From Escherichia coli (GTDB taxonomy: Bacteria; Pseudomonadota; Gammaproteobacteria; Enterobacterales; Enterobacteriaceae), in assembly GCF_003018115.1 (NCBI RefSeq), contig NZ_CP027458.1: a DNA stretch of 64,000 nucleotides; one strand, 5' to 3'. Positions 33,001 through 36,000 of the stretch are shown piece after piece. The position numbers are program-made. The first letter of the stretch is position 1; each line of letters opens with the position of its first letter.

Positions 33001-36000
33001 GGCGGCTGGCGCTTTATGGCATGAACGGTTGTAACCTTATGGTGAAGTCCCTTGCAATTAAATGTGGATAAACAAAATTCCACGTCTGTGAGGCGTGTTT
33101 TGTATCAAAAACAGGGGGAGCGGATGCACCAGAAGCTGGATGATGAGATTGTTTTTTGGGATGTGGTGCTGATTTTTTGTGCGCTGTCGGGCTTCAGACG
33201 TGCGGAAGCCCGACAGCGCGGGCCGGATTATTCAGATGAGGTCAAACTCAGGGGGAGGCTGTGGCCAGCCGTGTGTAGTTGTTGTTCCGCGACATTATCA
33301 TGCGTTCCTTCACGCGACGGTCGATTTCGCGCTTCACCGCCTCCAGGCTTCCTCTGAAGCGCCCTTCCGCGATTTCACGCGTCAGCTGCCGTTTCACCAG
33401 GGTGACGATATCCTGACGTTCCCTGTTCGCATCACGACGCGCACGGGCACGTTTTATTCCCCGGGACTTAAGCTCTGTCTGGTAACTGCGGAAACGCTCA
33501 CGGACAAAACGCCAGGCTTTCGCTATCAGTTCATCCATACCCAGGGTATCCAGCCCCTGCTTTTTGCGCTGTCTGTTTTCCCATTCAACACGACTGCGGC
33601 GCGCAGCCGCCACTGCATCCTCAGACACATCAAGGGCAGCAAACAGAGCCGGTGTGAACGTGATGTCGGTCGGAATGTAGCACCCAATAAGCGGATCATA
33701 TTCCGTCTGGTAGGTAATCAACCCCAGCTCTGACAGGAACGTCAGGGCACGGGTGGCACGGGTGATGGAGAGTTTTCCGGCAGCAGACTCCGTCGCCAGT
33801 CCGCACTCAATGGCCAGTGTGGTGATGGAGCACTGGACGCGGTTGGCCAGCGGGTCATAGTGGAAACACAGCCCCTGCAGGAGCGCATCAATAGCCCGTC
33901 GACGCAGCACCGGTGGCATGCGCCGACGCAGACCACGCGAACGGGCATGCGCCACATGAATAGCGAAATCAAAACGGGAAGTGAAGCCCACCGCCTTTTC
34001 CATCAGTTTTTCGCAGAACTTCAGCGTTCCGGCACCTTTACGGGGTGTAAACACCGGATTCGGGTTCTTTACCTGGCGGTAATACGTTTGTTGAAGATCA
34101 GTCACACCATCCCGCACTTACAATGCGCAGAAGGAGTGAGCACAGAAAGAAGTCTTGAACTTTTCCGGGCATATAACTATACTCCCCGCATAGCTGAATT
34201 GTTGGCTATACGGTTTTTAGATGGCCCCGGTAATCTTCTTAGTCGCCAAACTTGTCGAAGATTATCGGGGTTTTTGCTTTTCTGGCTCCTGTACATCCAC
34301 ATCAGAACCAGTTCCCTGCCACCTTATGGCGTGGCCAGCCACAAAATTCCTTAAAACGATCAGCAATCTAACATCTCATCACTGATACAGCAAGAAACGC
34401 AAATATTCACAAAGATTTTCTGCGCTTAACCTCTGACTCTATCAGCCACTCAAGCATCTGTGCCTGAGTGATCCCGTCTTCATCAGCAAGCTCACTTAAC
34501 TTTTCTTTCAAGCGAAGCTGAATGACGGCATGAAACGCTTTATGAGTGGCACTCCTTCTTGCGAGAGACGCTTTTTGTCGTTCTCTCGCAGGAACAGGAT
34601 TCCCCCTTCTGTAAGGTCGCTTTTTTCCCGATGAGGAAGTCTCTGCATTTACTGTCTGCGACATCTCGCCTCCTCTCTTCTCAGACAGGGATCGTTTCGC
34701 AGAGGATACTACAGTTTTTTGAAATCAGCGACTTGAGAATTGTGACGAAGATCTGTGTTGGCGCACAAATCAACGGGGATTACTGTTGTTTAATGTGATT
34801 TTTGTTGCGAAATGGCTGAAAAACAGGAAATGCCTTAACCTGTGTGCCGGCCCCGGGCGGGACCGGCGGTTTCTGGCATGTCGGGTGTCTGCCCCTGAAA
34901 TACCTCACACTTCCGGAAAGCGGGGACTTCCGTCCCCGCCCGGCAGCTTACTTCCGTGCTTCGTAGGCCAGAGTTACCTGCACCACTGTATTTCCCCTGT
35001 GAATATTCAGCTCACATAACCGTTCCCTGAATATCAGTGAAAAACACAACACCGTGGCGCACACGGCGAGCAACCCAATAAGGGTATATTTCGTCATAAA
35101 CTTTGACCTCTCTGCAAGGAAGAGGCTACAATCAGTAGTGCTACGTACTTCATGCAGGCCTCACGAGTTAATGGATTAACAAGTGGGGTCTTCGCATTTC
35201 TGGTACCTGCGTCTTGCCTGAACCAGAAAGGCTCAGACACCCGCCGCGATAATACCACATTCCCTGTTGCTGACTATTCCCTCCATTTCCCGCTTTTCGC
35301 TACAGAAACGCCGGGGACGGGGAAAACTTGCTTTTTCCCGTCCCCGGGGTTGGACAACTGAGCAACGCGAAGGCGTCAGTGGATTTTTATGATCCTTCCA
35401 AACTCTGCTTCCATTTTTTTCATATCCTGTTCTCTTACTGCGACTATCAGTTGTTTTCCTGATTTTCGTGCCACTCTGGCAAACTGCATGACGGCAGATT
35501 CATTATTCAAATCAGGCCATCCTGTACAATTAAAAATAATAATATGCTCACTGGCGTTCAGTGCATCCCTGATAAAAATAACCGCATAATCATTTAATGT
35601 TCTGTCAGAACAACTGTAAATCTGGCTGAAATCATAATACTTATAATCAGTGATATTCAGTTTATTTAAAAAACCATCAACTTCAGAAGCTGAGTCCCCA
35701 CTATAAGAACATTATGATTAGACGATGTGATTAATTCTGATACTGCCTGATAGTTCATTTGTTCACCTTTCATTAACAGAGAAATAAGTTAATAATGTAA
35801 TATGCTTCATGCTTTTAAATATCGCATTTCAATGAGAACTCAATAGCCACAGAAATATCATTATTTCCGTGAGCGCCATACCCAGGGCGGAACAGGAGCG
35901 CTGTCTGCCCACAGACCACGTTTCTGCTGTCGAGCTTCTCCCTGCAGGACGGGAAGAACAGGATCGGTGTTGTACTGCTCATAAACCCATGCAGCGCCTG

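Follow-up and report, generated by a model that had tools for sequence, protein, structure and literature searches.

The 64,000-nucleotide stretch of DNA analysed here, called the window in what follows, lies on contig NZ_CP027458.1 of Escherichia coli assembly GCF_003018115.1, and carries on its minus strand, between a thermonuclease gene and a hok/sok locus, a frameshifted gene whose intact orthologues encode a hypothetical protein of 127 amino acids (aa). With high confidence, this locus is a pseudogene, i.e., an accessory gene whose inactivation is recent and stable, and not a switch. The original prediction, made from the sequence alone, placed the interruption at a run of six T residues (T6) and named recent pseudogenisation as one of its possible causes. 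This is the cause that has held, in that the allele in the window equals an intact 127-aa orthologue minus one G, and nothing else. When the region was compared by megablast with PLSDB, the gene was found in about 240 plasmids, and the window was then aligned with 24 fetched copies, which gives 25 compared copies in all (loci are denoted by L numbers below).

Position of the lesion

The features of the locus, all of them on the minus strand, are the following.

35376 to 35758, minus strand: the frameshifted gene, an orthologue of the 127-aa hypothetical protein (e.g., WP_001109063.1 and WP_028985877.1), as defined by alignment with the intact coding sequences (CDSs) in L001, L005, L009, L014, L018-L021, and L023
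35666 to 35773, minus strand: the 35-codon short open reading frame (ORF), whose product from the real start at 35758 is the 30-aa peptide MNYQAVSELITSSNHNVLIVGTQLLKLMVF
35696 to 35699, minus strand: a run of four G (G4; C4 on the plus strand), the deletion site, which is G5 in intact orthologues (GTG GGG GAC, Val-Gly-Asp)
35668 to 35673, minus strand: the T6 run, in frame as GGT TTT TTA (Gly-Phe-Leu) in intact alleles, and in the window contributing its last T to the TAA at 35668-35666, the first stop met out of frame
35763 to 35769, minus strand: a Shine-Dalgarno-like AAGGTGA, read from the sequence, 4 nt upstream of the ATG that opens MNYQ
35376 to 35510, minus strand: a 44-aa remnant ORF with a TTG start in the original frame, called as the "hypothetical protein" WP_001058542.1 by the Prokaryotic Genome Annotation Pipeline (PGAP) in sister plasmids with the same frameshift

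Alignment with intact orthologues identifies the lesion as a 1-bp deletion in the G run, by which GTGGGGGAC has become GTGGGGAC (35696-35699); the T run lies 23 nt further downstream. The intact copies, which are 384 nt long, read ...CTT ATA GTG GGG GAC TCA GCT TCT GAA GTT GAT GGT TTT TTA AAT..., while the gene in the window is 383 nt long and reads ...ATA GTG GGG ACT... at the deletion site. Of the 127 residues, 21 precede the loss of frame, and a stop is met after 30 codons. In the nearest intact allele, L014 (plasmid pRM10466-2, NZ_CP028383.1), this G is the only difference from the window, and the T6, which is the same, codes in frame for Gly-Phe-Leu. From the in-frame T6 of the intact alleles it follows that T6 is the normal state of the gene, and that the run merely holds the first stop of the wrong frame; the alignment thus refutes T6 as the origin of the lesion.

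The arithmetic of the original prediction, in which a 35-codon frame ends in T6 and one more T would fuse it to the frame downstream, is correct. An ATG at 35773 opens a minus-strand frame of 35 codons (MKGEQMNYQ...) that runs to the TAA at 35668-35666, and the T of this stop codon is the last base of the T6 run at 35673-35668 (A6 on the plus strand). The -1 frame is open past T6 to a TGA at 35376 and encodes ...SASEVDGFLNKLNITDYKYYDF...GRIIKIH, so that one added T would join the two frames into 132 codons. The description had to be revised in three respects: the gene is on the minus strand; its real start is MNYQ at 35758, with a native length of 127 aa; and the missing base is a G rather than a T. 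Restoration by an added T was rejected, since only an added G reproduces the sequence of the orthologues; the T-restored product has eight wrong residues, TQLLKLMV in place of DSASEVDG.

The native start is the second ATG, at 35758-35756, and not the ATG at 35773. The 384-nt CDSs called by PGAP in sister plasmids begin at MNYQ, and in the orthologues L013 and L024 a TAA stands between the upstream ATG and the MNYQ ATG, together with an AAGGAG. With MNYQ as start, a native protein of 127 aa is cut down to a product of 30 aa. Comparison with orthologues, which the original prediction had named as a check, therefore shows that the short ORF is not the normal form of the gene: the intact orthologues have 127 aa, the same T6, and G5.

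The course of events may then be pictured as follows. The ancestral gene encoded a 127-aa protein between the thermonuclease gene and hok/sok, and this plasmid lineage has lost one G from the G5 run at codons 20-22, most likely through a single replication-slippage error that occurred only once. Translation from MNYQ now departs from the frame after Gly21, proceeds through eight wrong codons, and ends at the TAA that overlaps T6, and the resulting 30-aa peptide, in which about 75% of the protein is missing, is presumably without function. The G4 allele would thereafter have been passed on both vertically and by conjugation, and at least six plasmids have inherited it without change.

Stability of the G4 allele

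The exact 416-nt allele of the window was searched for in 5,426 complete E. coli genomes and found in five of them, 05-3629, 2013C-4282, S19-141 (Zurich, Switzerland), MFDS1006657 (beef ribs), and STEC1588, all with G4. The best matches to the window are 99.3-99.7% identical over 16-20 kb, and over 20 kb it is identical neither to any of the five nor to any other record among the complete E. coli genomes. The window is therefore distinct from the five, and there are six separate observations, all of them G4. In the comparison of loci, G5 was found in 12, and G4 only in the window, L003, L016, and L017, along with H104 and H105 (100% identity over 416 nt). About 190 other assemblies have either G5 or an interrupted GTGTGGG at the deletion site, and when matches in the complete genomes were restricted to at least 99.5% identity, only the five G4 copies and one G5 allele appeared. 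The G4 allele is thus confined to a single haplotype, where it is always OFF, and its six known copies are all G4/T6. The closest complete-genome relatives of window positions 28000-48000 are plasmids of the Shiga toxin-producing E. coli (STEC) type, with iha (a siderophore receptor/adhesin), an Exc2 lipoprotein, and tra genes.

These data bear directly on the proposal that the deletion is a homopolymer miscall in the assembly of the window and that the gene is really intact. Homopolymer indels are the commonest error in long-read assemblies, and the allele of the window is only one base away from an intact one. The same G4 allele has, however, been read in five other complete genomes that were sequenced independently, in different laboratories, countries, and years, and from this it follows that G4 is inherited and is not an assembly error; the roughly 190 assemblies with G5 or an interrupted run were, moreover, read at this site without trouble. 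Sequencing error, which the original prediction had called equally possible, is accordingly very unlikely. The truncated peptides of 35 aa and 30 aa have no exact match in a collection of 15 billion proteins, since peptides of this length escape gene calling.

Consider next the phase variation that the original prediction suggested, in which slipped-strand mispairing at T6 would make T6 the OFF state and T7 the ON state. An added T does join the two frames, and homopolymers are the usual substrate for switching of this kind. But L014, L021, and L023 are intact with the same T6 in frame, so that T6 is an ancestral state compatible with ON, while the supposed ON form with T7 would carry the eight wrong residues given above. 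There is no indel of the T tract in the 25 compared copies, where the tract is T6 after a GGT-type codon and T5 after an ATC- or AGC-type codon through substitution and never through an indel, and no T7 variant of the haplotype of the window (417 nt, 99.8% identical) among the 5,426 complete genomes. Six bases are also fewer than the typical length of a contingency tract. The probability of a switch at T6 is therefore close to nil.

A reversible switch could instead be placed at the G tract, with G4 turning the gene off and G5 turning it on. The lesion is indeed a 1-bp change in a homopolymer, and other frameshifts in the gene are also found in short runs (T5 to T6, A7 to A6). Yet the tract has only four to five bases, and G4 occurs on one haplotype with all six known copies OFF, while other backbones have G5 or the interrupted GTGTGGG; G4 and G5 show no sign of interleaving among the compared copies. 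Other lineages have, furthermore, lost the gene through unrelated and irreversible lesions, nonsense codons included, which is the pattern of decay and not that of a maintained switch, and this makes switching at the G tract highly improbable.

Both proposals invite comparison with the contingency loci, e.g., genes for surface structures in Neisseria, Haemophilus, and Campylobacter, where slipped-strand mispairing gives phase variation in tracts that are typically of seven or more bases and lie in the ORF or the promoter. The locus in the window resembles them in that its reading frame is shifted by an indel in a homopolymer within the coding part of the gene. It differs in that its tracts are short (four to five G or six T), in that there is neither polymorphism in tract length within the lineage nor a mix of ON and OFF states among near-identical plasmids, and in that the gene has been irreversibly inactivated in sister lineages.

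Even with the deletion in place, some full-length chimeric protein could in principle be made from the G4 allele, if leaky or programmed -1 ribosomal frameshifting occurred at UUU-UAA in T6. The truncated frame reads GUU UUU UAA, and with the stop codon in the A site, the tRNA-Phe in the P site could re-pair one base back on UUU, after which UUA (Leu) would be read in the original frame. It is the intact frame, however, and not the truncated one, with which the canonical heptamer of the X XXY YYZ type (U UUU UUA) is in register, and no strong RNA structure was found downstream of T6 (-12.7 kcal/mol, z = -1.87). The combination of G4 and T6 occurs in one lineage only, so that there is no conservation, and the same eight wrong residues would be present in the product. 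Rescue by this route is hardly to be expected.

Decay of the gene in other lineages

In the alignment of the fetched copies, other lineages show five or more different primary lesions, of independent origin, that inactivate the gene, and there are secondary indels in L008 and L022. The lesions are distributed as follows.

L002, L010, L011: loss of a T in GCTTCTGAAG, common in livestock isolates
L004, L006, L007: insertion in a T run (T5 to T6) at codon ~62, with a 70-aa product; the intact parent is the L005-type allele
L008, L022: the T5 to T6 insertion and a second indel (A7 to A6 in L008, an extra T in L022), i.e., secondary lesions in an already dead allele
L012, L015: TCA to TAA, S100*, nonsense
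L013, L024: TGG to TAG, W81*, nonsense

Intact 127-aa CDSs are found at the syntenic position, between nuc (the thermonuclease-family gene) and hok in L001, L014, and L018-L021, and between nuc and another ORF in L005 and L023; the copy in L009 is intact and unannotated. In L024 (NZ_CP104473.1, pUC4224_1, from a cheese isolate; 7865-8324), the thermonuclease neighbour is frameshifted as well and the RepA4 ORF has an internal stop, so that decay here reaches past one gene in the region.

The extent of the loss was estimated in a census of 60 evenly spaced plasmid records, classed by their length, identity, and bit-score in relation to sequenced exemplars, in which about 34 copies were disrupted, about 21 intact, four partial, and one of unknown state. 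In the collection of 15 billion proteins, the truncated products occur on at least 1000 contigs (70 aa), 266 contigs (80 aa), and 220 contigs (99 aa), and intact forms on at least 1000, at least 1000, 892, 678, and 406 contigs. When the frame is restored in 17 alleles, there are 13 variable codons with amino-acid changes, two of which also have synonymous variants, two with nonsense changes, and six that are purely synonymous. These counts suggest weak constraint, in a rough count over few sites that is not a formal dN/dS. The independent destruction of the same gene, in other ways, in many other IncF lineages points to a dispensable gene.

The locus behaves in all essentials like the frameshift pseudogenes known among the accessory genes of enterobacterial plasmids. 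These likewise have an intact orthologue at the corresponding place, a short run where one base gained or lost brings an early stop, multiple independent lesions in sister lineages, and secondary lesions in older dead alleles; the only thing missing here is the flag of the NCBI pipeline. In RefSeq/PGAP annotation of L003, L016, L017, and L011 there is no pseudogene flag, and either nothing is called or the 44-aa remnant with its TTG start; the exact sequence of this remnant, WP_001058542.1, occurs on 361 contigs.

Some points weigh against reading the locus as a stable pseudogene. The lesion lies in a homopolymer, and sites of this class revert more often than any other. The evidence used here consists of assembled sequences, and a low level of G4/G5 heterogeneity within a culture is conceivable. 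The census, finally, places unsequenced rows with the exemplars by inference. There is a small chance that the G4 allele is not wholly silent, with a little full-length protein made through low-level reversion of the G tract or -1 slippage at UUU-UAA in T6, and that the repeated inactivation in IncF plasmids reflects selection against the gene in some hosts and not neutral decay.

The protein, its neighbourhood, and its biological meaning

That the gene is a real one follows from an orthologue with 54% identity in the same slot of a Citrobacter F-like plasmid and from a confident AlphaFold2 model of the protein (predicted local distance difference test, pLDDT, 83.8). Searches with the restored protein in Pfam, NCBIfam, PADLOC, PHROGs, and the sequences of the PDB gave no significant family. 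Close homologues occur only in enterobacterial F-like plasmids, and relatives at about 50-54% identity have 143-152 aa, the Citrobacter one in the same traI-finO-...-copB-repA slot. Five proteins from E. coli and Klebsiella (P0009, P0078-P0080, and P0083) have 145 aa, with the N-terminal two-thirds nearly identical to the 127-aa form and a C-terminus like that of the 143-152-aa relatives. To judge from these sequences, the 145-aa copies suggest recombination within the gene, and a 127-aa form with a shortened or replaced C-terminus.

When 1.8 billion representatives were searched with a profile, proteins of 140-165 aa at about 25% identity were found, in which Walker A (GxTGSGKS) and Walker B (LILD) are both present and which match many AAA/P-loop models in Pfam below threshold. 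The 127-aa protein shares its alpha/beta core fold, of the ASCE type, with the P-loop NTPases (ASCE/AAA+-like). It differs from them in having no lid or accessory domain, and in its motifs: throughout the IncF clade, to which the 143-152-aa relatives also belong, Walker A is replaced by G-[DNES]-S-[AV]-[ST]-x-[VI]-D and Walker B by IIFN. In the alignment of the clade with its distant relatives (A3), the degenerate motifs are GDSASEVD and IIIFN where the latter have GxTGSGKS and LILD, and neither Walker A as GxxxxGK[ST] nor Walker B as hhhhD/E is found in the IncF clade. With such motifs the protein cannot be filed as an active NTPase; it has the P-loop fold and is probably no NTPase.

The distant relatives that bear the motifs, L028/L029 (P0063), L030 (P0050), L031/L032 (P0054), and L025 (P0043), are situated in DNA of conjugative elements. 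One context has the order Arc-like / SNase / PcfJ / X / topoisomerase III / SprT / Hha, further ones have topoisomerase III and H-NS close by, and one relative is inside an IncI-like type IVb (thin-)pilus operon, between a T2SSE ATPase and a T2SSF protein. An SNase gene stands two genes upstream in L028/L029, and nuc is the immediate upstream gene in the IncF window.

Around the frameshifted gene, the window has the following features.

35861 to 36337, minus strand: the thermonuclease-family (nuc) gene, upstream neighbour, intact
34948 to 35242, minus strand: a hok/sok-type toxin-antitoxin locus, downstream neighbour, with the Hok/Gef ORF at 34948-35097 and the Rfam sok match at 35087-35242
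35307 to 35351, minus strand: a strong GC-rich hairpin immediately 3' of the gene (CCCCGGGGACGGG...CCCGTCCCCGG), with a minimum free energy of -42 kcal/mol for 106 nt and z = -2.97

The order along the minus strand is finO with a small ORF, the thermonuclease gene, the frameshifted gene, the hairpin, sok/hok, copB, the CopA RNA, tap, and repA, which places the frameshifted gene just outside the IncFII replicon (copB-tap-repA). A simple scan for promoters and terminators yielded neither a convincing sigma-70 promoter for the gene nor a canonical terminator, and the gene may share a transcript with nuc. In the spacer upstream of the thermonuclease gene, at 36499-36641 on the plus strand, there is an Rfam match to AS-pc02 (antisense to pHK01_099) with 49.4 bits against a gathering score of 40.

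The slot from nuc to hok/sok (35376-35860) is polymorphic among IncF plasmids, with yihA/DUF2726 in about 3,700 records and the 127-aa gene in about 240. In F and most IncFII plasmids, yihA/DUF2726 fills this slot, flanked by nuc (yigB-like) and hok/sok, and of the window's DNA there only the hairpin and a 3' junction of about 50 nt at 35330-35379 are shared; in the megablast comparison this interval (query 482-531) matches about 3,700 records under the DUF2726 CDS, and the hairpin is within DNA common to these plasmids. The DUF2726 protein is unrelated to the 127-aa protein, whose gene stands in its place in no more than about 240 of the roughly 4,000 plasmid records that match. A search of the literature on the plasmid nomenclature of yihA and yigB gave nothing useful.

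The biological weight of the finding is small: the locus is one more decayed accessory gene, of an ordinary kind, carried by an IncF virulence plasmid from E. coli of the Shiga-toxin type. It does illustrate that a frameshift need not lie where the first stop codon is met, since the lesion is here 23 nt further upstream and in a different homopolymer, and that automatic annotation gives this pseudogene no flag and in some cases reports a spurious ORF of 44 aa in its place. The gene family itself is uncharacterised, and consists of a small protein with a P-loop fold that has lost its Walker motifs and is encoded beside a thermonuclease gene in conjugative plasmids. Its frequent loss, as seen in the sequences compared here, suggests that the gene is probably dispensable under laboratory and gut conditions.
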